Of a stretch of DNA of 64,000 nucleotides, positions 31,803-52,413 are shown piece by piece. The DNA is taken from IMG/VR virus record IMGVR_UViG_3300045988_123588. One strand, written 5' to 3'. Numbering within the stretch: the first letter of the stretch is position 1; every line of letters starts with the position of its first letter. The notes below the pieces were generated by a model. It was not told the origin of the DNA. It saw only the letters and a list, made by a program, of their open reading frames with translations, and searched no databases. The stretch comes from a virus. The translations under genes were made by a program, and so were the position numbers.

Positions 31803-32378
31803 ATGGTACAATTAGAGTTCACAAAGATTAGAGATGTTAAATCTCCAAACCGAGCTAATGAGGGAGATGCAGGTTTGGATTTTTACATACCTAAATTAAC
31901 TATTGATGACATCTTAAAGGTAGGTGAGAAACATGAGAAAGATTTCACCGGTATCAATAGAAAGATGTTTGGTTGTGGTAACATAAAATTCAAAGGCATA
32001 GATACTAATGGGTTATGTATAGCCCTTAATCCAGGAGGACGAATACTTATACCCTCTGGAATAAAGGTTCTTATCAATCCCAGGGAATCCATGCTCATGG
32101 CAGCAAACAAATCGGGAGTTGCTACTAAAGATGGATTAACATTTACAGCCGAGATAGTTGACAGTCCGTACACGGGAGAGATGCACATCGGGATTCAAAA
32201 CGCTTCTACTGAACCAGTATATATACCCCTCAGAGAAGATAAGAAGATAATGCAATTCATACATGTTCCTATCATACTCTCAACACCGGTAGAGATTACC
32301 AACGAGGAGTATGAAGAGAAAGCAAAAAACTGGGGAACAAGAGGAGATAAGGGATTTGGTGCACACGATAATAAGTAA
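31803..32378 (+). CDS. dut: Trimeric dUTPase
   Basis: All five motifs are present: GDAGLDFY, ANKSGVA, EIVDSPYTGEMH, KIMQFI and RGDKGFGAHD. Confidence 0.85.
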   Translation: MVQLEFTKIRDVKSPNRANEGDAGLDFYIPKLTIDDILKVGEKHEKDFTGINRKMFGCGNIKFKGIDTNGLCIALNPGGRILIPSGIKVLINPRESMLMAANKSGVATKDGLTFTAEIVDSPYTGEMHIGIQNASTEPVYIPLREDKKIMQFIHVPIILSTPVEITNEEYEEKAKNWGTRGDKGFGAHDNK

Positions 32379-32382
32379 GACA

Positions 32383-33288
32383 ATGGATAGTCGCGATATA
32401 AAGGAAGAACCGAAAAATATAGAGGGTAATAGATATCTTGAGGAGATATACTTTATGCAAAAGAACCTCCTATCTGGTTATATCGGTATAGAGGGGCTCC
32501 CACAGTATCCTATAGATATCAATACAAAAGCTTCTCAAACTTTACTCAAGGACTTCACTGCACGTGTAATAGAGGAGTTATCTGAGGGGTACGAATCTTT
32601 TCAGGCAGTGGATAGTATCATGCAGAACAGTCACTACAAGATTATATCTGGTGATGACCTGATATACATTGAACTACTTAATAACCTTCAAAATGCCAAT
32701 GAGGAAAATGCAGATGCAGTACACTTCTTTGTTGAGTTGCTGATATATGCTAACATTCAGCCTGATGATATCATGGCATACATGGAGAAGTGGGTAAAGG
32801 ATAACAAATGCGAACAGAGTACAGTAGATTACTTTAACTCTATACGTAATGATATCCTGTATACTGCTCAATCTATGGGAGTGAAGTGGTTGATGGATGA
32901 GAGAGATATAGAAGTAATCTTTGATAGTAACTCAACAAACCTGTTGAAGTGGTACGAAGAGAAAGACTCCGAAACTTTCCCTGAGTACAATGAGAAACTG
33001 TTGAAAGGCGGTTATAAGTATAATCACGAAAACTATGCTCTTCAATATCCGTATATACTATGGAAGATAACTCACCATTTGAACATAGCTCGTAATTTCC
33101 TGAAGAATAAACCATGGAAGCAATCTCAGGTGATGACTCAGGAGTTAAAGTATCAGGCTGAGTTGGTGAAAGCTTTCATATACTTCTGTGGTTACCTCGG
33201 ATGGATAGGTATGGATTCTAAGGAAGTGTTCTATATATACTTCAAAAAGAACCATATCAATATGTTCCGTCAAAAATCTAAGTATTAG
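32383..33288 (+). CDS. All-alpha (dimeric dUTPase / MazG-like) dNTP pyrophosphatase
   Basis: I moved the start to ATG 32383. The motifs are IEELSEGYE, EENADAVHFFVELLIYANI, NKPWKQSQV and the C-terminal YFKKNHINMFRQKSKY, which together fit the dUTPase_2-type pattern. Confidence 0.6.
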   Translation: MDSRDIKEEPKNIEGNRYLEEIYFMQKNLLSGYIGIEGLPQYPIDINTKASQTLLKDFTARVIEELSEGYESFQAVDSIMQNSHYKIISGDDLIYIELLNNLQNANEENADAVHFFVELLIYANIQPDDIMAYMEKWVKDNKCEQSTVDYFNSIRNDILYTAQSMGVKWLMDERDIEVIFDSNSTNLLKWYEEKDSETFPEYNEKLLKGGYKYNHENYALQYPYILWKITHHLNIARNFLKNKPWKQSQVMTQELKYQAELVKAFIYFCGYLGWIGMDSKEVFYIYFKKNHINMFRQKSKY

Positions 33289-33289
33289 T

Positions 33290-34282
33290 ATGAACATAGT
33301 TAGGGCAAAGAATCCTATTAAGGCCTGGGAATATTTAGTAGAGGGATTCCTACTGAAAAAACCCGAATGGTTTGGAGAAGGAGTTGGTTACAATATAACC
33401 AACTCTCTTTTCACGTACGATATGTGCATAGAGATAGAAGAAGCCAAGTTTAATCCCAAGTTTGACTTTGGTAAGTTGTTCTGTTATACCATGACTAAGT
33501 GGACTGGTTTAATAACCAACTACTTCGATTTAGATGTGCTTGATGAAGCTAAGATTATGATAAGAAAGTTGGAAGAAAATAAGGTAGTGAATAGAAACTA
33601 CCATATAGGCTTTCACTTTGCAGACAATCATAATAGTGGAAAGGGATGTCTGGTGGGTGGAATATTCTCTCGTAAAATAGGTGTAGAAAAACCAGAGATA
33701 ACTATCATTCTACGTTCATCAGATGTAGTAACCAGATTGCCTATGGATATGCTGTTATTCTGTAGACTCGGTGAATATGTATACGGACATACTGATTTCA
33801 AACTGGTACTGATTCTGAAAGCAGCTTTTGCAGATGATACAGCTATACTTATGTACAACAATCATAAGGAAATAAAGAAGGTAATGAAAGGCTGTGAAGA
33901 TGTAGAACGTAAGAGAAAGATACGCAAATCATTCAAGAGGTTGATGACCAGTGATGAGAAGGTATATAAGACTTATGGTCACAGTTTCAGAGCTTTCAAA
34001 GCTTTGAGGAAAGATCTCTCTTATAAACGTAAGTCAATGACTGCAGGTGAATTAGAGATTGGTAACTGGGATGGTATTCCTCTTCCATATCCATGTTCTT
34101 CAATACTCAAACGAAATGAGATAAAGAAGACCTACTTAAAGTTCACTAGTAAGTATGGGCTTAAATTAAAGCTGGAAAGTGAAGGTAATGAAGGCAAAAG
34201 AAAGAAGCTACTATCATTCGGAGCATCAGAAGGAGAGCCAGAAGAAGTTGGATATCAAATACCAGGACAAGAAGATGAGTAA
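33290..34282 (+). CDS. Divergent thymidylate-synthase-fold protein, paralogue 1
   Basis: TS-type motifs occur in order: YTMTKW, NRNYHIGFHF, GKGCLVG (Cys), ILRSSDVVTRLPMD and DDTAILMYNNH. The protein carries a ~90-aa basic/acidic C-terminal extension. Confidence 0.55.
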   Translation: MNIVRAKNPIKAWEYLVEGFLLKKPEWFGEGVGYNITNSLFTYDMCIEIEEAKFNPKFDFGKLFCYTMTKWTGLITNYFDLDVLDEAKIMIRKLEENKVVNRNYHIGFHFADNHNSGKGCLVGGIFSRKIGVEKPEITIILRSSDVVTRLPMDMLLFCRLGEYVYGHTDFKLVLILKAAFADDTAILMYNNHKEIKKVMKGCEDVERKRKIRKSFKRLMTSDEKVYKTYGHSFRAFKALRKDLSYKRKSMTAGELEIGNWDGIPLPYPCSSILKRNEIKKTYLKFTSKYGLKLKLESEGNEGKRKKLLSFGASEGEPEEVGYQIPGQEDE

Positions 34283-35063
34283 GCTTAAAATAAAGGGTAA
34301 CCTGTTGCAGTTCAAAACCAGCATGAAAGCTTGGGAAGGACTTAACAGGTTATTTCTGTTCAATACCCTTGGTTTGGACATAGAAAGAATTGGTAAAGCT
34401 CAATATATAAATGATTTAGTCATTAGTATTAATGAGCCTCTAGTAGACCCAGAATTTGATTTTGGTAGGCACTTCAACTACACCATGTCAAAATGGAAGT
34501 CATTAGTAGCTAATTACATTGATGAGAATAGTTTGATTGACTTAAGACAGGAAGTCAACACAGCTATGAACTCAAGGAAGATATTCAATATAGGTTATCA
34601 GTTTAATAATAAACATGCTCATGGGAAGAACTGCCTATTATCTATGACAGTGTCTAAAAAGGCTGGTATGGATAAACCCATGATAACCGTGTTCATGAGG
34701 GCATCAGAAGTTACTAAAAGATTAATATGTGATTTACTCCTCATTCAACGTATGGGAGAGTATATATTTTGCAATGGTCAGAAGTTTCAAGTATCAATAC
34801 ATTTCAGTCAGATATTTAATGATGATACTGTATTACTAATGTACCATGCTCATGAAGATTTACTAAAGCTAAGTGATAAACTTGGTATATACGACGGGAA
34901 TTGGTATGAGCGATTAGAATACCTACTAAAAGTAGACCCTGACAAGATAAAGTATAAGGTACATAAAAGAGCTTTGAAAGTACTAAGGCCAGAATTATTC
35001 AAGTACCCAAAAACTCTGGCAAAAGATTGTACACTTGGTAATGAAGACTGGCTACCATTCTAA
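34275..35063 (+). CDS. Divergent thymidylate-synthase-fold protein, paralogue 2
   Basis: I set the start to ATG 34275, giving an ATGAGTAA overlap with the previous stop. It is collinear with paralogue 1: YTMSKW, SRKIFNIGYQF, GKNCLLS, FMRASEVTKRLICD and NDDTVLLMYHAH. Confidence 0.55.
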   Translation: MSKLKIKGNLLQFKTSMKAWEGLNRLFLFNTLGLDIERIGKAQYINDLVISINEPLVDPEFDFGRHFNYTMSKWKSLVANYIDENSLIDLRQEVNTAMNSRKIFNIGYQFNNKHAHGKNCLLSMTVSKKAGMDKPMITVFMRASEVTKRLICDLLLIQRMGEYIFCNGQKFQVSIHFSQIFNDDTVLLMYHAHEDLLKLSDKLGIYDGNWYERLEYLLKVDPDKIKYKVHKRALKVLRPELFKYPKTLAKDCTLGNEDWLPF

Positions 35064-35099: not shown

Positions 35100-35279
35100 A
35101 TGAAAATAGAAGTAAAGAAATCTCCTTATACCAGTAAACTCGGAGGAGATATAGATATAACTTTCTCCACTGATGATGGATGGTTATTTAATACCGTGGC
35201 CAACATAAGTGTAAAAGATTTAAGGCAGCTTAAAAGAAAGGTAAGGAGGTATCTAAGTGAAGTACGAGAGGAAAGGTAA
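35100..35279 (+). CDS. Unlisted 59-aa ORF, paralogue of 35257..35457
   Basis: MKIEVKKSPYTSKLGGDIDITFSTDDGWLFNTVANISVKDLRQLKRKVRRYLSEVREER*. Its C-terminal KDLrqLkrKvRrYl matches QDLKELRKSIRKYI of the next ORF. Confidence 0.45.
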   Translation: MKIEVKKSPYTSKLGGDIDITFSTDDGWLFNTVANISVKDLRQLKRKVRRYLSEVREER

Positions 35280-35457
35280 ACCATATTTTGGAGTGGAGAT
35301 ATCCAAGGGTAAATATCCCGATAGGAATAGCAGGGATATAGAGTTATCTATATGTATCAATGCTCATCATTGGGTAGGTCTTCCCAATATGAATATTCAG
35401 GACCTAAAAGAACTACGAAAATCTATAAGAAAATATATTAAAAATAACGAACAATGA
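35257..35457 (+). CDS. Small protein, paralogue of 35100..35279
   Basis: 66 aa with a GTG start preceded by aggagg. It overlaps the previous ORF by 23 nt. Confidence 0.45.
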   Translation: MKYERKGKPYFGVEISKGKYPDRNSRDIELSICINAHHWVGLPNMNIQDLKELRKSIRKYIKNNEQ

Positions 35458-36302: not shown

Positions 36303-36376
<74 letters not shown>

Positions 36377-36465
36377 CTTATGAATCTTTACTTTGCGCTG
36401 TGGACAACGAGTCCTGATTCATTCCCAGGTACTGGACGGTAGTGATATAGACTGGTACCTAATTT

Positions 36466-36540
36466 ACGGAAGTAGCACAGTCCGGTCAGTGTACTTGCTT
36501 TGGGAGCAAGGGGTCGCAGGTTCGAATCCTGTCTTCCGTA
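36466..36540 (+). tRNA. tRNA-Pro (UGG)
   Basis: The cloverleaf is acggaag/cttccgt acceptor, gcac/gtgt D stem, cttgc-ttTGGga-gcaag anticodon arm and gcagg-ttcgaat-cctgt T arm. Confidence 0.85.
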
Positions 36541-36651
36541 CAAGGGCTATATGCTGGGTCATAACAGGAGATACGACCTCCAGCTAGCAATGGGCAATAA
36601 CCTGGTACGAGATACCAAAACCCATAATTAAAGTCGAAGGCTATAGCTTTA

Positions 36652-36690
36652 GGAGATGAGCGAAGAACAGTACCTCATCTCCCCTTTTGT
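36652..36690 (+). terminator. Hairpin plus T tract between tRNA-Pro and tRNA-Leu
   Basis: ggagatgag (36652-36660) pairs with ctcatctcc (36674-36682) around a 13-nt loop, followed by ccttttgt. It ends 5 nt before tRNA-Leu. Confidence 0.65.
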
Positions 36691-36694
36691 AAAG

Positions 36695-36780
36695 GCTCGG
36701 ATGGTGAAATAGGTAGACACGCCGGACTTAAAATCCTGTGACCAGCAATGGTCGTGCGGGTTCGATTCCCGCTCCGAGTA
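36695..36780 (+). tRNA. tRNA-Leu (UAA), type II with a long variable arm
   Basis: The sequence begins gctcggatggtgaaataggtagacac, as E. coli Leu tRNAs do. The anticodon loop is ctTAAaa, the variable arm is gtgaccagcaatggtcgt, and the T arm is gcggg-ttcgatt-cccgc. Confidence 0.85.
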
Positions 36781-36795
36781 CAAAATACCCTGAAC

Positions 36796-37131
36796 ATGAC
36801 AATCACATTCAAAGATTATCCTTGCGGTACAATTTCATTAGGTACTTCAGTAACAAGAATACCTAACTCATATCGGATTAAATCTATCCGAGATATGGAA
36901 TATATAATCAACCGTTCTAGAGAAGAAGTAAATAAAAGTCCAGCATTCCATACGTTTGCAATAAATAAAAGAACTACAGCTGGTATGATTATTGAATGGC
37001 GAGCCCATAATATGCTATATGCACTGCATATAAAAAGGAATCGGACTCGAACGGTTGACCTGGATATAAATGAACCATGGTACCGTAAAGTAGGATATGT
37101 AATATTATCAACACTATACTTAAGATGGTAG
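36796..37131 (+). CDS. Hypothetical protein
   Basis: I moved the start to ATG 36796 because the track ORF start at 36748 lies inside tRNA-Leu. 111 aa. Confidence 0.45.
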   Translation: MTITFKDYPCGTISLGTSVTRIPNSYRIKSIRDMEYIINRSREEVNKSPAFHTFAINKRTTAGMIIEWRAHNMLYALHIKRNRTRTVDLDINEPWYRKVGYVILSTLYLRW

Positions 37132-37733
37132 AAATCACAAACGTAGACGTTTATGACTTAGAGAAGTCAATTATAGCATGTAGGAATGCTATGCGTACAG
37201 AACCTGTATTTCCAATAGGCGTAGATGCTTGGGGACATCCAATTTACGAACAGAAGGAGTGGGATGATTCTTTCAAGAGGGCAAAATCACTTGCCAAATC
37301 TCCCTCAAACAGTGGTCACCCTAATTTTCTAACCGGTATAAGGGTATCATTTGATATTCTGTACCCAAACTACTTTTCACCCGAGTTACAACGATATCAT
37401 TGGATAGACATTGTAACCTCATCTTCAAAGATGCACCGACTTGGTGAAATTGTAAAGAAGGAATCTTTTAACAAGTATGTAACTCCAGAGGTCATAGCTA
37501 TAGTTCAGGACTTGGCCAATAAGTTCATTGAGGACCCCAGCTATGAGAATCGCATCAAGCTGTTAAGTAACTGCCCTCTCGGAATAGAGTTATTCATGAG
37601 GGTAAGTACAAACTATATGCAACTACGGAATATATACTACCAGAGGAAAGACCATCGCTTGAGAGAGGATTGGGGGTCATTTTGTAAGATGATTCAGGAA
37701 TTACCATTCTTTGATGAATTTATCAATCAGTAG
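37125..37733 (+). CDS. ThyX-fold protein with degenerate catalytic motifs
   Basis: It is collinear with ThyX. SGHPNFLTGIRVSFDILYPNYFSPELQRYHWIDIVTSSSKMHRL aligns with HGHETPFEH..F.F.V.aPifvarQwfRHRiaSyNElSgRY. STNYMQLRNIYYQRKDHR aligns with TvNaRsLmnFlnLRadshA. Confidence 0.55.
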   Translation: MVEITNVDVYDLEKSIIACRNAMRTEPVFPIGVDAWGHPIYEQKEWDDSFKRAKSLAKSPSNSGHPNFLTGIRVSFDILYPNYFSPELQRYHWIDIVTSSSKMHRLGEIVKKESFNKYVTPEVIAIVQDLANKFIEDPSYENRIKLLSNCPLGIELFMRVSTNYMQLRNIYYQRKDHRLREDWGSFCKMIQELPFFDEFINQ

Positions 37734-38110: not shown

Positions 38111-40399
38111 ATGGAGTCAAGATATGCTATAATAAAGAGTTTCTCACAAGTCAAGCGGCTTGTGAAAGCCTGTTTGAAAACAGGTATAGCTTCCGTCGAC
38201 TTCGAGACAAACGCAGAGGGTATTTATAATAAAACCTTCAAACCAACCATCTTATCCATAACCTTTCAAGTTGGTTCTGGTGTATCAATTCCACTATGTC
38301 ATCATGAATATAAAAACCCTCGTTGGAAACGTTGGTTAAAGTATTTTGGTAGGAAAGTGGTTGAGAATCCTAATATAACTAAAGTAGGATGGAATCTGAA
38401 GTTTGACCTTCAGATATTTGAGTTGTTTGGAATATATGTTAGGGGTACAGTTCTAGACGGTATGCTTATGAAGTACCTTCTGAACGAAGAGAAACCTAAT
38501 GACTTGAAGTCCATGGTTAGAAGGTATCTACCAGAACATGGGGATTACGAGAAGTCAGATAAATTCGACAAGATACCATGGGATAAGAAACCTTTAGAAC
38601 CATTATGCAAGTATGGTTGTCAGGATACCGATTACACTCTTAGGTTAGCTATGTTCTTTGAAAGCAAGCTGATAGAGGTTGGTATGTATCCATTATTCAG
38701 GCATTTGATTATGCCTGCTTCACGGGTATTGCAACATGCCGAGAAAACAGGATTATATCTCGATAGGAAGTTCAATCAGGAATTACTTGAATCTTATAAA
38801 CCAAAGATTGACCAAGCAACTTCTAATTGCTTGAATCTTCCTCGAGTGAAAAAATTCTCTAGATGGCTTGTCCAAGAAAGAATAAGCAAATATCTTGCAT
38901 CTATTGAAAGTGAACTTGAGGATTTAGATTACAATGATCCGAAGGATGCCCGTAAAATAGCAAGCAGGGAACAAAAAATATCTAACATCCGAGCAGGTGT
39001 ATTCACTACTAAAAAGGAATTGGAATTAACCCGAGAAGTAAACTTAGGGAGTCCTATTGACTTACCTTTGTTATTATATTCTAAAAAGGGATTTAACTTT
39101 CCGATAATAAAATACACAAAGGATAAGAAAACAAATCGTGATACTGATAAGCCAAGTACTGATGAGGATACGTTGGTAGAACTTAGGTTAACGGTTAAAG
39201 ACCCAGAAAGTCCAAAGGCAATATTCCTGGATAACCTTCTTGAGTTGAGAGGGTTAAAGAAAATGTATACAACATATATAGAGGGGTGGCATGATAAGGT
39301 ACAGGATGATGATAGGATTCATGGTCAATTCAAAATCATTGGTACTACATCAGGACGACTGAGTAGTTCTGAACCCAATCTACAGCAGATACCAAAGACT
39401 TCAGTAGATGCTAATATTAAGAAACAGTTAGTAGCTCCAAAGGGGAAACTATACATGGCACTAGACTACTCTCAGGCAGAGTTAAGAATCATGGCACACC
39501 TTTCAGGAGATGAGACTTATCTTGAGGCATTTGCCAAGGGTCAGGACCCTCACCTTGCTATTGCAGCAAACAAATATGGGGTATCATACGAGGAAGCAAA
39601 CAAAGCTTATAGCGATGAACAACATCCCGATTATAAGCTTTGGAAAAATCGAAGGAAGCAGGCAAAGCAGATATGTTTCGGTATTATATATGGTATTCAG
39701 AAGAAACTGCTTGCAGTTAAACTATCTGACCCAAAAGCTGGTATTATCGTAACTCCAGATGAAGCTCAACAACAGCTGAACGAGTTTTTCCAAGAGCACC
39801 CAAAGATTAAGAAGTTCATGATTAACCAAGAGAAAGTATTGGTAAGACATGGATATATTAAATCTCTGTTTGGTAGGAAAAGAAGATTACCTCAAGTATA
39901 TTCTGATAATGAGCAAGAAGCTGCATACGCAGTACGATTATCAGTTAATATGCCATGTCAATCAGCTGCATCCGATATGACTTTGTTTGCATCTATACTT
40001 AATTACTGGAAGATTAGGCAGGGCATATTACCACCTCTATTGGAAACATGTACTGTACATGATGCTGTTTATTACCTGACAGACCCAGAATATATAAACA
40101 TATTCACAGTGTATAATATATGGGAAACATGCCGTAACCCGAGTACAAAAGAATATTTCAAGTTTGAAATCAATGATGTCGATATGTCTATGGACTTTAC
40201 TATAGGACGTTCGATGGCTGAGGAGTTACCGTATATACCGGGATATGACTATAGAAAAATGCTTCAACCAGATTTCAATGTGGAGAAGTATTTGGAAGAA
40301 CATCGGAAATGGAAAGAGCTATCCATTAAAGAGTTCCCAAAGAAGTTTCCGGAATACTTTAAGAAGGATTACTCATGGCGAAAGGAAAAGGTGGCATAG
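38111..40399 (+). CDS. Family A DNA polymerase with 3'-5' exonuclease domain
   Basis: The Exo motifs are ASVDFETNA (I), GWNLKFDLQIF (II) and YGCQDTDYTLRL (III). The Pol motifs are LDYSQAELRIMAHLSGD (A), RRKQAKQICFGIIYG (B) and CTVHDAV (C). Confidence 0.95.
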   Translation: MESRYAIIKSFSQVKRLVKACLKTGIASVDFETNAEGIYNKTFKPTILSITFQVGSGVSIPLCHHEYKNPRWKRWLKYFGRKVVENPNITKVGWNLKFDLQIFELFGIYVRGTVLDGMLMKYLLNEEKPNDLKSMVRRYLPEHGDYEKSDKFDKIPWDKKPLEPLCKYGCQDTDYTLRLAMFFESKLIEVGMYPLFRHLIMPASRVLQHAEKTGLYLDRKFNQELLESYKPKIDQATSNCLNLPRVKKFSRWLVQERISKYLASIESELEDLDYNDPKDARKIASREQKISNIRAGVFTTKKELELTREVNLGSPIDLPLLLYSKKGFNFPIIKYTKDKKTNRDTDKPSTDEDTLVELRLTVKDPESPKAIFLDNLLELRGLKKMYTTYIEGWHDKVQDDDRIHGQFKIIGTTSGRLSSSEPNLQQIPKTSVDANIKKQLVAPKGKLYMALDYSQAELRIMAHLSGDETYLEAFAKGQDPHLAIAANKYGVSYEEANKAYSDEQHPDYKLWKNRRKQAKQICFGIIYGIQKKLLAVKLSDPKAGIIVTPDEAQQQLNEFFQEHPKIKKFMINQEKVLVRHGYIKSLFGRKRRLPQVYSDNEQEAAYAVRLSVNMPCQSAASDMTLFASILNYWKIRQGILPPLLETCTVHDAVYYLTDPEYINIFTVYNIWETCRNPSTKEYFKFEINDVDMSMDFTIGRSMAEELPYIPGYDYRKMLQPDFNVEKYLEEHRKWKELSIKEFPKKFPEYFKKDYSWRKEKVA

Positions 40400-40826: not shown

Positions 40827-41201
40827 ATGTCAAAAATTGAATTAGACCTTATTTCGGTCAAAGAAGCAAATGAGTTGAACGATAAACTGAAAGGTTTAGG
40901 AACTCCAACAGGAAGCCGGGTACTTATAGTATCTCCAATAGTAACTGCAGATACAAAAACAAAGGGTGGATTATATATCCCTCAGGAACACGACAAAGAT
41001 ACAGTACCACGCAAAGGAGTGGTCATTCAAGTAGGACCAATAACTGACGAACAGCAGGAAGAATATCCTGGTCTTCAAGTAGGAGCTGTAGTTACGTATG
41101 GTCTGTATGCCGGTAAAGAGCTGGATATTGTAGACCTTCCCAATCAAGTAACTACTATATTATCTCTGAACGAGATACTTTACATTGAAACCAATAAATA
41201 A
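40827..41201 (+). CDS. GroES/Cpn10-like co-chaperonin
   Basis: GSRVLIVSPIVTADTKTKGGLYIPQEHDKDTVPRKGVVIQVGPI...GAVVTYGLYAGKELDI...ILSLNEILYI is collinear with the GroES signature. Confidence 0.65.
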   Translation: MSKIELDLISVKEANELNDKLKGLGTPTGSRVLIVSPIVTADTKTKGGLYIPQEHDKDTVPRKGVVIQVGPITDEQQEEYPGLQVGAVVTYGLYAGKELDIVDLPNQVTTILSLNEILYIETNK

Positions 41202-43264: not shown

Positions 43265-44174
43265 AAAACCGAGGATGCTTATGGTAGTGGACGGGAGTAA
43301 TCTTGCTCACCGTTCATACCATAAGTTTAAGAATCTAAAAGCCAACAACGGAGTTGGTACAGGGTTGGTATATGGATTCTTAAGAATCTTAGGTTCATAC
43401 CTAACAAGGTTTAAGCCCAGTCATGTAGTAATTACTTTCGATACTCAACAGAGCAAAGAGTCAAATTTCCGTAATGGTCTACTCGAAGGTTACAAAGCAC
43501 ATAGGAGTAAGATAAGTATGGATTATGAAGACTTCAATAAACAATTATCATTGTTGAGAAGGATTCTAAGATTACTCGGAGTTCAGATGATTATTGATAG
43601 GAAGGGCCTGGGATATGAATCTGATGACTACATTGCTTGGTTGGCAATAAACCACCCAGGTAAATCTCTGATAATATCCTCTGATAAAGACTTCTGTCAA
43701 TTGCTTGATAAAAGAGTCAAGATATTCAATCCTAACAAAGATACCATAATCCTAAACCAAACCTGCAAGGATATCATGGGTTACTCTGCTGAGGAATGCG
43801 TTGACTACCTAATACTTAATGGAGATAAGTCAGATGATATCCCAGGTTATTACGGTATGGGAGAAGTGAAGACAAAAGCTTTCTTAAAACAGTATGGGAG
43901 TATATCAGACTTCATAGATGCAGTCGGAGCAGAGTTCAAGGGTATTGAAAGGGACCAGCTAGAAGAGTTATACAAGAAGAACAAGCCTCTGATAGACTTG
44001 AGAACAGCATTAACTCTGCACCCAATCAAGAAAGTCCCTTGGGTAAAAGGATGTACTAATAATAAAAGGAAGGATAGGTTATTCATGGTATTAGACAAGT
44101 TTAACCTTAGGTCTTTCAAGATACCCGATTTTTTGGAACCTTTCAAAAAACTACAACATTATGTACAACGGTAG
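43227..44174 (+). CDS. 5'-3' exonuclease / flap endonuclease (T4 RNase H-like)
   Basis: The motifs are MLMVVDGSNLAHRSYH, GYESDDYIAW, IISSDKDFCQLL and LNGDKSDDIPGYYGMGEVKTKAFL. The start is uncertain; ATG 43254 or 43275 would remove the overlap with the recombinase. Confidence 0.9.
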   Translation: MQKKKNISRMRGRKPRMLMVVDGSNLAHRSYHKFKNLKANNGVGTGLVYGFLRILGSYLTRFKPSHVVITFDTQQSKESNFRNGLLEGYKAHRSKISMDYEDFNKQLSLLRRILRLLGVQMIIDRKGLGYESDDYIAWLAINHPGKSLIISSDKDFCQLLDKRVKIFNPNKDTIILNQTCKDIMGYSAEECVDYLILNGDKSDDIPGYYGMGEVKTKAFLKQYGSISDFIDAVGAEFKGIERDQLEELYKKNKPLIDLRTALTLHPIKKVPWVKGCTNNKRKDRLFMVLDKFNLRSFKIPDFLEPFKKLQHYVQR

Positions 44175-44823
44175 GAAATACCAAATCATGTTCACCGGAG
44201 TTTCGGGAGTTGGAAAAACAACTATTGCCAAGGAAGTGGCAGATATGTTAAAGATACCTTTCATATCTGGGTCATATTCTGACTTGGTACCTGAAACTAA
44301 AAACATGCCACATGCTGATATGATTCAGCAGGATGCCGAAACGGTATTCACACAGGATATGCAGGTACTTAATCTGCGTAACAAAGCTTTCAGGGGAGAA
44401 GATAGCTTTGTAACAGACAGGTCATACTTTGACTCAGCAGCATACTTTATCAATAAGCTATCACATAGGTTAGCTGAATGCGATTTAGAACATGCTGTAG
44501 ACTTATGTCGTATGTTACTTGGTCAACAATGTACTCATTTAATCTTCATACCTTTCTCAGCAAGATTTTTCAATGAGTGGGTAACAGAAGATAACGGTAA
44601 ACGAGTACTATCAAAGTACTACCAATTCCAGGTATCACAGGTAATGTACGGACTACTTGACCTGTGGGGTTTCAAACTAGATTCAAATATATTCCAGTAT
44701 GTAAATGGTATTCCCAATACTGGTACATTGGATATCATGGGTTACAAGATTAAAGTCATGATATTGGATGAGATGAACTACGAAAAAAGGAAAAACCTTA
44801 TCAACAAATTTCTTCAGTTATGA
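44161..44823 (+). CDS. P-loop deoxynucleoside/deoxynucleotide kinase-like protein
   Basis: The P-loop is MFTGVSGVGKTTIAKEVA and VTDRSYFDSAAYF is a dNK-like DRS motif. Confidence 0.55.
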   Translation: MYNGRKYQIMFTGVSGVGKTTIAKEVADMLKIPFISGSYSDLVPETKNMPHADMIQQDAETVFTQDMQVLNLRNKAFRGEDSFVTDRSYFDSAAYFINKLSHRLAECDLEHAVDLCRMLLGQQCTHLIFIPFSARFFNEWVTEDNGKRVLSKYYQFQVSQVMYGLLDLWGFKLDSNIFQYVNGIPNTGTLDIMGYKIKVMILDEMNYEKRKNLINKFLQL

Positions 44824-51903: not shown

Positions 51904-52413
51904 ATGGCAAAGAAAAAAGCTGCAGCAAAAGAGGTAGAACGCAAGGTTCTCTCTAACGGGGTAATTCTCATCAAATACGATGACGATTCCTATGCACTCC
52001 TGACTCCCATCTCGGCAGAAGACGCCGAAGAAATTTTCGGTGGGGAATCCGAGGATTCGGACGACGAGGACGAAGAAGACGAGGATGAAGATGAGTCGGA
52101 TGACGAAGATTCCGATGAAGACGAAGACGAGGAGGATTCTGACGAAGAAGAAGACGAGGACGAGGACGGCGATGAGGATGAAGAGGACGAAGATGAAGAG
52201 GATGACGACGAGGTAACCCCCGAGGACCTGGCCGGCATGGACTTCGAAGCTCTCGAAGACCTCTGCGACGACAAAGAACTCGAAACTGACCCCGACGAAT
52301 TCGACGAGGAAGACGTCGAGAAACTCCGCAAAGCGGTGGCCAAGGAACTGAACATCACCCTGCCCAAGGCAAAGGCCGCTTCCAAGAAGGACACCAAGAA
52401 AAAGAAAAAGTAA
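51904..52413 (+). CDS. Poly-acidic protein with a ~65-residue D/E tract (DNA-mimic or chaperone candidate)
   Basis: 169 aa. The N terminus is MAKKKAAAKE and is followed by a short beta-like segment. ESEDSDDEDEEDEDEDESDDEDSDEDEDEEDSDEEEDEDEDGDEDEEDEDEEDDDE comes next, then a HeH-like segment (LAGMDFEALEDLCDDKELE) and a KKKKK tail. Codon usage is G/C3-rich. Confidence 0.7.
   Translation: MAKKKAAAKEVERKVLSNGVILIKYDDDSYALLTPISAEDAEEIFGGESEDSDDEDEEDEDEDESDDEDSDEDEDEEDSDEEEDEDEDGDEDEEDEDEEDDDEVTPEDLAGMDFEALEDLCDDKELETDPDEFDEEDVEKLRKAVAKELNITLPKAKAASKKDTKKKKK

Follow-up and report, generated by a model that had tools for sequence, protein, structure and literature searches.

Two adjacent genes in the 64-kb viral window (the whole stretch of DNA that was analysed) encode proteins, P1 and P2, that are best explained as a deeply divergent, uncharacterised branch of the thymidylate synthase (TS)/dCMP hydroxymethylase fold superfamily. 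On residue conservation and gene context, both are somewhat more probably than otherwise (roughly 0.55) active cysteine-dependent enzymes whose substrate is a cytosine mononucleotide that the neighbouring pyrophosphohydrolase provides. The branch, referred to here as family X, recurs in very different phages, including phages of Actinobacteria, Proteobacteria and Firmicutes and those of the human gut, and no characterisation of it was found in the literature.

P1 and P2 are translationally packed behind the gene of an all-alpha NTP pyrophosphohydrolase and ahead of P3, a second TS homologue (Table 1). The pyrophosphohydrolase gene ends 1 nt ahead of the P1 start and probably begins at ATG 32383, just past the stop of the dUTPase gene. 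P2 most likely begins at ATG 34275, which would give an 8-nt overlap with the P1 stop (ATGAGTAA); GTG 34179, the mechanical start of the open reading frame, is a less likely candidate because P2 orthologues have N-termini that fit 34275. P3 begins 390 nt past P2, and the two small ORFs between them, which look paralogous, lie within the same tightly packed operon, the second overlapping the P3 start (ATGA). Farther downstream, a 202-aa ORF (37125-37733) that had been suspected to be ThyX-like found no match in Pfam or the PDB, and no zinc deaminase was recognisable within the window.

Table 1. Features of the P1/P2 region and its nucleotide-metabolism neighbours.
Feature	Position	Strand	Description
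dUTPase	31803..32378	+	Trimeric type (PF00692)
Pyrophosphohydrolase	32311..33288	+	All-alpha NTP pyrophosphohydrolase (dimeric-dUTPase/MazG-like)
P1	33290..34282	+	330 aa; divergent TS-fold protein (predicted), family X
P1 key codons	Y66 33485-7; K70 33497-9; Y78 33521-3; C120 33647-9; R142 33713-5; D145 33722-4; D153 33746-8
P2	34275..35063 (most likely)	+	262 aa; P1 paralogue
P2 key codons	C120 34632-4; R142 34698-700; E145 34707-9; D153 34731-3
Two small ORFs	35100..35457	+	59 and 66 aa; between P2 and P3
P3	35454..36224	+	256 aa; PF00303 TS homologue, cytosine type (predicted)
DNA polymerase	38111..40399	+	Family A; downstream boundary of conserved module
Nucleotide kinase	44161..44823	+	P-loop nucleotide-kinase-like protein, candidate dNMP kinase

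The preliminary description of this DNA had proposed two collinear paralogues, and the ORFs are indeed present, with 33% identity over 266 columns and collinearity from the N-terminus (BLASTP, E 7e-43). All the motifs that it quoted occur in the sequence, among them RL(G/M)EY(V/I), which P1 and P2 have in common with P3 (WRLMEYV in the latter); the local BLASTP match between P1 and P3 (E 7e-4) is confined to this segment. The C-terminal extension of P1, previously put at ~90 aa, measures ~65 aa beyond P2. It comprises a conserved helix (~residues 269-291) followed by a disordered tail of ~35 aa, in which residues 292-330 hold 10 acidic and 6 basic side chains, with the charged disordered stretch at 296-330.

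The AlphaFold2 models of P1 (pLDDT 82.7, pTM 0.81) and P2 (pLDDT 89.7, pTM 0.89) place both proteins in the TS fold, as the preliminary description had claimed. Foldseek searches of the PDB retrieved TS-fold enzymes exclusively for either model, with probabilities of ~1.0, albeit at modest TM-scores to the solved structures (0.35-0.60). The top matches of P1 were 4o1u_B (6.7e-5) and then 9iqu (9.5e-5). P2 was closest to 9iqu (AfhB; E 2.8e-6, TM 0.51/0.60), ahead of MilA and T4 dCMP hydroxymethylase, and nine of its ten best hits were cytosine-directed enzymes (the phage dCMP hydroxylase AfhB, MilA and T4 dCMP hydroxymethylase). In BFVD, phage TS proteins rank behind family X's own members. The profile-profile comparison that had been suggested as a check agrees with the models, since hhalign aligned the combined P1 and P2 profile with the TS profile at a probability of 90.8% (E 1.2e-6). 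Furthermore, P1 matched TIGR03283, the archaeal TS model of NCBIfam, at E 0.003, and a family X profile found 9iqu_A (E 2e-4) as its sole sequence match in the PDB.

It is extremely improbable that this resemblance is a chance or modelling artefact and that P1 and P2 are unrelated to TS. The reasons for caution are the modest TM-scores and the failure of simpler searches: neither protein has an above-threshold match in Pfam or NCBIfam, PF00303 matched none of P1, P2 and 43 divergent relatives even at E 0.1-1, and single-sequence searches of Pfam, PHROGs and the PDB with P1 were empty. A first family X profile likewise gave nothing meaningful against the PDB, and AfhB was reached by the deeper profile only. 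Against an artefact, two separately predicted models, hhalign, the profile search of the PDB, NCBIfam and BLASTP against P3 agree, and the positions that are invariant in the family are exactly the TS catalytic ones.

The active site was mapped onto Escherichia coli ThyA by profile alignments. The ThyA segment quoted in the preliminary description is correct against the real sequence (YQRSCDVFLGLPFN), and C146, R166, D169 and N177 correspond to Cys, Arg, Asp/Glu and Asp in the two proteins. Hhalign pairs R142, D145 and D153 of P1 with R166, D169 and N177, which places Asp at the Asn177 equivalent of P1 and P2; C120 falls two residues off C146 in this alignment because the P1 hairpin loop is longer, and the deeper profile alignment pairs the two cysteines directly. 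Y78, C120, R142 and D153 are each kept in 127 of 128 unique family X sequences, and are invariant even among members that are 15-23% identical. Y66, which is nearly invariant, sits two residues away from the column that pairs with ThyA Tyr94, the residue of C5 proton abstraction. The D169 equivalent is Glu in 102 sequences, Asp in 21, Tyr in three and Phe in one, and never Asn; the Tyr belongs to an actinophage clade (Muddy, Emalyn and Huwbert). Three residues before the Cys, at the position of ThyA L143, 114 of the 128 sequences have Gly (Gly117), so the family follows neither the methylase nor the hydroxymethylase rule.

Other parts of the TS active site have no conserved equivalents in the profile alignments or in the family conservation, namely E58, R21, R126'/R127' and the W80/W83 region. 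The columns of ThyA Glu58 and Trp80/Trp83 align with no conserved acidic residue or Trp in family X, and the RR pair of TS (R126'/R127') was not found across the 128 sequences; at its structural equivalent (P1 R102), Arg occurs in 69, Lys in 34 and a gap or another residue in the rest. The secondary structure of the models contains no obvious helix B or small domain. With E58, R126'/R127' and W80/W83 unconserved, folate-dependent TS-type chemistry is therefore not to be assumed.

These losses of catalytic and folate-binding residues could also mean that P1 and P2 are nucleotide-binding, non-catalytic pseudoenzymes, which would serve as scaffolds or regulators coupling the pyrophosphohydrolase to P3 or to the replisome. 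The acidic tail of P1 would mediate this coupling in a T4-like dNTP-synthesising complex. The disordered, charged nature of that tail is in keeping with such a role, as is the constant association of the family with a complete TS homologue and a pyrophosphohydrolase, and the tight gene packing suggests stoichiometric co-expression. We nevertheless consider a pseudoenzyme unlikely, given that the nucleophilic Cys persists together with the Arg and the Asp down to 15% identity, which is hard to explain without Cys chemistry, and that both paralogues retain all three residues.

The identity of the base is suggested by D153. Asp at the N177 position is a mark of dCMP-directed TS homologues and of phage DNA with modified cytosine (PMC13326640; PMC8670742). 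In the preliminary description the two proteins were taken to be cytosine-directed; the Asp itself stands, and cytosine specificity is plausible in view of this residue and of the closest structural neighbours of P2. A use of uracil nucleotides instead, whereby the upstream 'dimeric dUTPase' would provide dUMP to an alternative thymidylate or 5-substituted-dUMP synthase, is distinctly improbable. The upstream gene does match PF08761 (dUTPase_2), and genome announcements have interpreted the module as thymine synthesis (PMC10353413). However, the invariant residue is Asp, which selects cytosine, and not Asn (cited in PMC13326640), the structures closest to P2 are cytosine-directed, and the window contains a separate trimeric dUTPase. 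In addition, Microbacterium phage Huwbert adds a canonical TS (L143, N177, H147, R127) to family X and a D177-type TS, and family X is therefore unneeded there for dTMP.

Members of family X were confirmed in seven cultured phages, Mycobacterium phage Muddy and Pseudomonas phage PMBT14 among them. The family corresponds to PHROGs 34294 and 13667, both labelled 'function unknown' (P2 matches phrog_34294 at 8.9e-10 and Muddy gp47 matches phrog_13667), and two GenBank records name a member 'pyrimidine hmase synthase'. The 'new TS subfamily' of the preliminary description was thus an overstatement, because the family already exists in PHROGs and in cultured phages. The family HMM recovers P1 at 2e-75 and P2 at 6e-79, both sequences being part of its seed alignment. 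Among the loci examined, which include 80 IMG/VR relatives, 79 carry two family X genes and one TS; the related-locus search with the closer alignment yielded near relatives only. The spread of the family beyond the phage, the linkage to the pyrophosphohydrolase and the Asp in P3 had been missed in the earlier reading.

The pyrophosphohydrolase is the most constant neighbour of family X, lying directly upstream of a member in 14 of the 15 contexts examined (the window; loci L006, L007, L008, L009, L010, L099 and L100; PMBT14, Muddy, Serbin, CPAS-15, Yersinia P744 and Huwbert). In the fifteenth, Emalyn, an 83-aa ORF lies between the two genes. In other phages the kinase gene is found directly upstream of the pyrophosphohydrolase. 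Modules of a D177 TS, a pyrophosphohydrolase, a deaminase and PolA occur in modified contigs (bioRxiv 10.1101/2024.12.05.627091), and our literature search returned no report of DNA modification in PMBT14, P744, CPAS-15, Muddy or the Gordonia phages.

The pyrophosphohydrolase linkage also bears on whether P1 and P2 might modify cytosine in DNA after replication, with the extended C-terminus of P1 binding the DNA. Attack by a Cys at C6 of cytosine in DNA is the chemistry of the unrelated C5-methyltransferases, and the P1 extension contains basic as well as acidic residues. Action on DNA, which the preliminary description had allowed for, is nonetheless very improbable, because the gene most tightly linked to the family encodes an NTP pyrophosphohydrolase and the Arg for phosphate binding is invariant. 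Moreover, the P1 extension is absent from single-copy family members, and all characterised TS-fold enzymes use mononucleotides (PMC13326640, PMC5175136).

P3 matches PF00303 at 4e-17 and has C172, R197, D200 (equivalent to D169), D208 (N177), R169 (L143) and S173 (H147). It had been described as the more canonical TS, but it likewise has Asp at the Asn177 position. From this Asp, P3 is predicted to be dCMP-directed, and is probably a dCMP C5-methylase or hydroxymethylase. The TS partners of family X, a subfamily with about 125 phage records, always have R143, D177, S/T147 and Q/K127. Within the T4 and Xp12 paradigms it is hard to see what a further dCMP-directed enzyme alongside P3 would do, which counts against P1 and P2 being such enzymes. 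A role for family X in supplying the lost R127 of the partner TS was considered and rejected: the TS homologue of SP82G (annotated as thymidylate synthase) also has Gln there, and tblastn searches yielded no family X homologue from SP82G.

Under the preferred reading, that of active enzymes on a cytosine mononucleotide, the pyrophosphohydrolase would convert dCTP, and possibly dUTP too, to the monophosphate. P1 and P2 would hold the cytosine mononucleotide through R142 and D153 while C120 attacks C6, and the resulting covalent 5,6-dihydropyrimidine intermediate would activate C5 for substitution. The reaction would differ from that of P3, which probably makes 5-methyl- or 5-hydroxymethyl-dCMP, and a phage dNMP kinase would phosphorylate the products for use by the phage polymerase. 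The co-substrate may be other than methylene-tetrahydrofolate, since family X conserves no counterpart of E58, of W80/W83 or of the arginines from the partner subunit. TS-fold enzymes are dimers, which is the basis for the speculation that P1 and P2 form a heterodimer. A one-site heterodimer arising from complementary degeneration, with an R21-like Arg in one paralogue and an R126-like Arg in the other, was dropped because the Arg of the R-x-G motif is unconserved in the P2 family and because Cys, Arg and Asp remain in each of the two paralogues.

A bolder proposal, possible though doubtful, is that family X carries out a pyrimidine chemistry new to the TS fold, in the form of a folate-independent, Cys-dependent conversion of dCMP or of a P3-type product (5-methyl- or 5-hydroxymethyl-dCMP). 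An exocyclic-methylene intermediate trapped by a new nucleophile would be one example. If true, this would represent an unrecognised nucleotide-modification or salvage step in many phages, including the therapeutic phage Muddy and a large human-gut group, and the tandem P1/P2 of gut phages would perform it as a heterodimer or in two steps.

To our knowledge, each known pre-replicative route to a modified pyrimidine in phage DNA (5mC, 5hmC, 5hmU or 5hoC) begins with a TS-fold enzyme. Each new branch of the fold has so far led to new chemistry, and it was not until 2025-26 that the 5hoC synthases, which hydroxylate with a flavin cofactor and O2, were reported. Family X is invisible to Pfam-based surveys such as MetaGPA, yet it is conserved beside a dCTPase-like gene. 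If active, it would supply a missing step in models of how such phages build or exclude cytosine nucleotides, with consequences for how phages evade restriction and CRISPR, for artefacts in sequencing and for the enzymes available to epigenetic sequencing. The hosts can be grown in culture (M. smegmatis for Muddy, P. fluorescens for PMBT14 and C. perfringens for CPAS-15), and the question is therefore testable now.

Among known systems, E. coli ThyA resembles P1 and P2 in the core beta-sheet and the helix J segment, which align (RSSDVVTRLPMD against RSCDVFLGLPFN), and in a Cys-to-Arg spacing that is compatible given the longer hairpin loop of P1. P1 and P2 differ from it in having Asp for Asn177, in the absence of conserved E58, R21, R126/R127 and W80/W83, and in the lack of a Pfam match. 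The T4 dCMP hydroxymethylase gp42 shares the TS fold, the Cys nucleophile and an Asp (Asp179) at the N177 position, and its structures 6l18 and 1b5d are among the Foldseek matches of P2. Sequence identity is ~10%, and gp42 carries E60, the RR pair and, in place of L143, an acidic residue; P1 and P2 show Gly at the last of these and conserve no equivalent of the others. In T4, an all-alpha dCTPase (gp56) precedes gp42 in the pathway and the dNMP kinase follows it (cf. PMC13326640). The CMP 5-hydroxymethylase MilA (PDB 5jnh, 5b6d) is a further cytosine-directed TS-fold enzyme that ranks high in Foldseek with both models. Unlike P1 and P2, it is a ribonucleotide-specific enzyme of a bacterial antibiotic pathway, has a folate site and clearly belongs to PF00303 (PMC5175136).

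The AfhB-type phage 5-hydroxy-dCMP synthases (HY126 AfhB, PDB 9iqu/9iqc; RB69 gp48; DLP3 gp80) provide the best structural match of P2 and the second-best of P1. AfhB is a short, dCMP-directed TS-fold protein with Asp at N177 and no folate chemistry, and D169N is diagnostic of the AfhB/RB69 gp48 class (PMC13326640). This substitution is absent from P1 and P2, which have Asp or Glu there (Tyr in the actinophage members); furthermore, AfhB-type proteins match PF00303 whereas P1 and P2 do not, and P1 and P2 are accompanied by a further D177 TS homologue. The same gene neighbourhood is seen in the Xp12-type and MetaGPA 'modified cytosine' modules, which combine a D177 TS homologue, a PRA-PH/MazG pyrophosphohydrolase, a 5mC-selective deaminase and PolA; the studies describing them were Pfam-based and do not mention an extra TS-fold gene (PMC8670742; bioRxiv 10.1101/2024.12.05.627091). 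Neither Xp12 nor PaMx74 was recovered by tblastn with the P3-type TS (R143). In its D177 and its non-His residue at position 147, P3 fits this Xp12/MetaGPA class.

The window is the part of a tailed-phage genome devoted to replication and nucleotide metabolism (helicase, primase, PolA, gp32-like, RecA/UvsX-like, FEN and Mre11/Rad50 genes, three tRNAs), the relatives of which are human-gut metagenomic phages with contigs of up to ~75-84 kb. P1 and P2, tandem divergent paralogues of one family (family X), are placed as in the preliminary description and are confirmed as collinear (BLASTP, 33% identity over 266 collinear columns, E 7e-43); all motifs quoted there are present, and the quoted ThyA segment agrees with the real Escherichia coli sequence. 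The C-terminal extension of P1, put at ~90 aa, is shorter, running ~65 aa past the end of P2 as a conserved helix and then a ~35-aa disordered charged tail. P2 likely starts at 34275, since its orthologues begin at the Met encoded there and this ATG overlaps the P1 stop (GATGAGTAA; overlap of 8 nt). The gene directly upstream, encoding an all-alpha NTP pyrophosphohydrolase, stops 1 nt before the P1 ATG. Counted from its mechanical start (32311), this ORF shares 68 nt with the dUTPase gene; translation more likely begins at the in-frame ATG at 32383, which lies 5 nt past the dUTPase stop. At ~300 aa the protein far exceeds the usual length of dUTPase_2/MazG proteins, and its Pfam match covers only part of it. 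Two small ORFs lie between P2 and P3, a TS homologue (PF00303). They look like paralogues, with a basic motif, DL+xL+K.(V/I)R+Y(L/I), at the C-terminus of each, and the second runs into the start codon of P3 (ATGA).

Features of the window and of other phages and contigs
Feature	Coordinates	Length	Remarks
NTP pyrophosphohydrolase	32311/32383-33288
P1	33290-34282	330 aa	ORF
P2	34179/34275-35063		ORF, two possible starts
Small ORF 1	35100-35279	59 aa
Small ORF 2	35257-35457	66 aa
P3	35454-36224
tRNA cluster	36303-36781		Met-CAT, Pro-TGG, Leu-TAA; just after P3
ORF at tRNA-Leu	36748-37131	127 aa
ORF between TS and PolA	37125-37733	202 aa	phrog_6721, without annotated function
GroES-like co-chaperonin	40827-41201		PF00166 Cpn10, E 9e-13; adjoins gp32-like ssDNA-binding protein gene
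dNMP kinase-like protein	44161-44823
ORF with repeat	51904-52413
GA-rich imperfect tandem repeat	52063-52211		encodes Asp/Glu-rich stretch
X member, Pseudomonas phage PMBT14 gp48
X member, Mycobacterium phage Muddy gp47
X member, Serratia phage Serbin gp051
X member, Clostridium phage CPAS-15 gp21	L015 4208-4957
X member, Yersinia phage P744 ORF027			annotated "pyrimidine hmase synthase"
X member, Gordonia phage Emalyn gp47
X member, Microbacterium phage Huwbert gp65
Huwbert TS pair	L018 3884-5529
Family A DNA polymerase, contig L099	9803-12343		N-terminal uracil-DNA glycosylase domain (PF03167)
Family A DNA polymerase, contig L100	14611-end		as for L099

Elsewhere in the window, the GA-rich repeat explains a local rise in GC and an AT skew, and the 127-aa ORF probably starts later or is spurious because it overlaps tRNA-Leu. 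The 202-aa ORF occupies what is the zinc deaminase slot in other phages. It is homologous to hypothetical proteins from Clostridium, Clostridioides and Fusobacterium phages and matched nothing in Pfam or the PDB, and two of its segments are ThyX-like by eye only.

Neither P1 nor P2 matched Pfam-A, and PDB searches with single sequences and a shallow profile returned nothing relevant. The sole NCBIfam hit, and a weak one, linked P1 with archaeal TS (TIGR03283, E 0.003), and P2 matched only PHROG 34294, a family without annotated function. The proposed TS fold was borne out by models and profile comparisons. An AlphaFold2 model of P1, built on a 21-sequence alignment (pLDDT 82.7, pTM 0.81), matched TS-family structures only in the PDB (human TS, 6.7e-5; AfhB, the dCMP hydroxylase of phage HY126, 9.5e-5; the CMP 5-hydroxymethylase MilA), and in BFVD its own family members came first, followed by phage TS proteins. 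The separately predicted P2 model (pLDDT 89.7, pTM 0.89) matched AfhB best (E 2.8e-6, TM 0.51/0.60), then MilA and T4 dCMP hydroxymethylase, and nine of its ten best structural matches are cytosine-directed TS-fold enzymes. The suggested profile-profile check, run with hhalign between the P1+P2 family profile and a TS profile that took in ThyA, T4 gp42, phage homologues and P3, gave a probability of 90.8% (E 1.2e-6). Furthermore, a deeper family profile found AfhB in the PDB (9iqu_A, E 2e-4), and P1 is locally similar to P3 (BLASTP, E 7e-4). Four kinds of evidence (the P1 model, the P2 model, the profile-profile comparison, and profile-PDB with local similarity) converge on a TS fold for P1 and P2, and an artefactual likeness is scarcely credible. 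TM-scores of 0.35-0.60 indicate that only the fold core is common to P1/P2 and TS-fold structures.

The mapping of residues to ThyA also holds. In both shallower and deeper hhalign comparisons, R142-S143-S144-D145 of P1 pairs with R166-S167-C168-D169 and D153 with N177; C120 falls on C146 in the deeper comparison and two residues away from it in the shallower one, a shift that a longer hairpin loop joining the two central strands (E122-128 and E136-145 of the P1 model) could account for. The only invariant columns among members 15-23% identical to P1 are Y78, C120, R142 and D153, which stayed invariant after cultured-phage members were added and, across 128 unique family sequences pooled from all loci, are kept in 127; Y66, K70, W71, L74 and F110 are nearly invariant. 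This conservation is the strongest support for the mapping, by which the invariant Cys, Arg and Asp are shown at the nucleophile, phosphate and base-specificity positions of TS. The L143 position holds Gly, and the D169 position Glu or Asp in most members and Tyr in an actinophage clade. Family alignments and profile comparisons gave no conserved equivalents of ThyA E58, R21, the R126'/R127' pair or the W80/W83 folate segment. The apparent loss of folate-handling residues, with flavin-dependent AfhB so close a neighbour, means that the co-substrate may be other than folate. Such losses would also fit a non-catalytic partner subunit, an unlikely role for P1/P2 given the invariant Cys.

Every informative context has the gene order (dNMP kinase), all-alpha NTP pyrophosphohydrolase (PF08761 dUTPase_2, MazG or HD), X, TS homologue, (zinc deaminase), PolA. 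X directly follows the pyrophosphohydrolase in 14 of 15 contexts examined, window included (the exception, Emalyn, has an 83-aa ORF between), and does so even on one contig with the TS 5 kb away; this is the tightest link in the module. The partner TS forms a distinct subfamily, always with Asp at N177, Arg at L143, Ser/Thr at H147 and Gln/Lys at R127; it occurs in ~125 phage records and lies beside an X gene in every case examined. P3 (D208 at N177, R169 at L143, Ser at H147) belongs to this subfamily and is thus not a canonical TS, a point missed in the preliminary description, which called it more canonical. These residues make P3 a probable methylase or hydroxymethylase of dCMP, and the window phage therefore probably carries modified cytosine. 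Two X genes accompany one TS in 79 loci of the examined set (80 of the set being IMG/VR relatives of the window phage), and X is likewise duplicated on an unrelated contig, L008. Huwbert provides a natural control, with an X-linked D177/R143 TS adjacent to a fully canonical one (L143, N177, H147, R127), which shows that both types are functionally distinct. In Huwbert, D177-type TS and X are therefore not there for ordinary dTMP synthesis, and a uracil-nucleotide enzyme is an improbable reading of P1/P2. Some X-module phages encode a family A DNA polymerase fused to a uracil-DNA glycosylase domain.

Family X is not private to the window phage. Exhaustive screening of 1.84 billion representative proteins with a family profile returned 255 representatives of X (E ≤ 1e-3), and structure and profile matches led to members in cultured phages, which PHROGs places in 34294 and 13667, both without annotated function. 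The P744 label means that at least one annotation pipeline had noticed the TS fold. CPAS-15 gp21 has apparently been mis-annotated in GenBank as 'colanic acid biosynthesis glycosyltransferase WcaC', since this protein matches phrog_34294 (3e-181) and keeps the family Cys, Arg and Asp. A literature search found no characterisation of the family, which is of real specialist interest because it is widespread, Pfam-invisible and testable in cultured phages.

X genes are shown to be operon-coupled to an NTP pyrophosphohydrolase and a cytosine-type TS. The pyrophosphohydrolase would supply dCMP, like gp56 in T4; R142 and D153 would bind it, and C120 would add to C6 and so activate C5. The product would differ from that of P3 or, alternatively, may derive from it via an exocyclic-methylene intermediate. 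The dNMP kinase-like protein and PolA would complete the route, and a P1:P2 heterodimer is a plausible prediction. Action on DNA, which the preliminary description had entertained, is very improbable.

Metaviromic contigs with modified cytosine are enriched in Asp177, non-His147 TS homologues (PMC8670742) and carry modules of TS(D177), pyrophosphohydrolase, deaminase and PolA, several TS homologues of which make 5-methyl-dCMP (bioRxiv 10.1101/2024.12.05.627091); both analyses were Pfam-based and blind to X. Gordonia phage Azira, four genes of which were taken as "thymine synthesis" in its genome announcement (PMC10353413), carries the partner TS type. Cytosine specificity, as first proposed, is plausible, while "new subfamily" was overstated: the P1/P2 family sits, as a new variant, within the TS-fold pyrimidine-nucleotide enzymes of phage DNA-modification modules, and differs from AfhB in lacking the D169N signature of that enzyme (PMC13326640).
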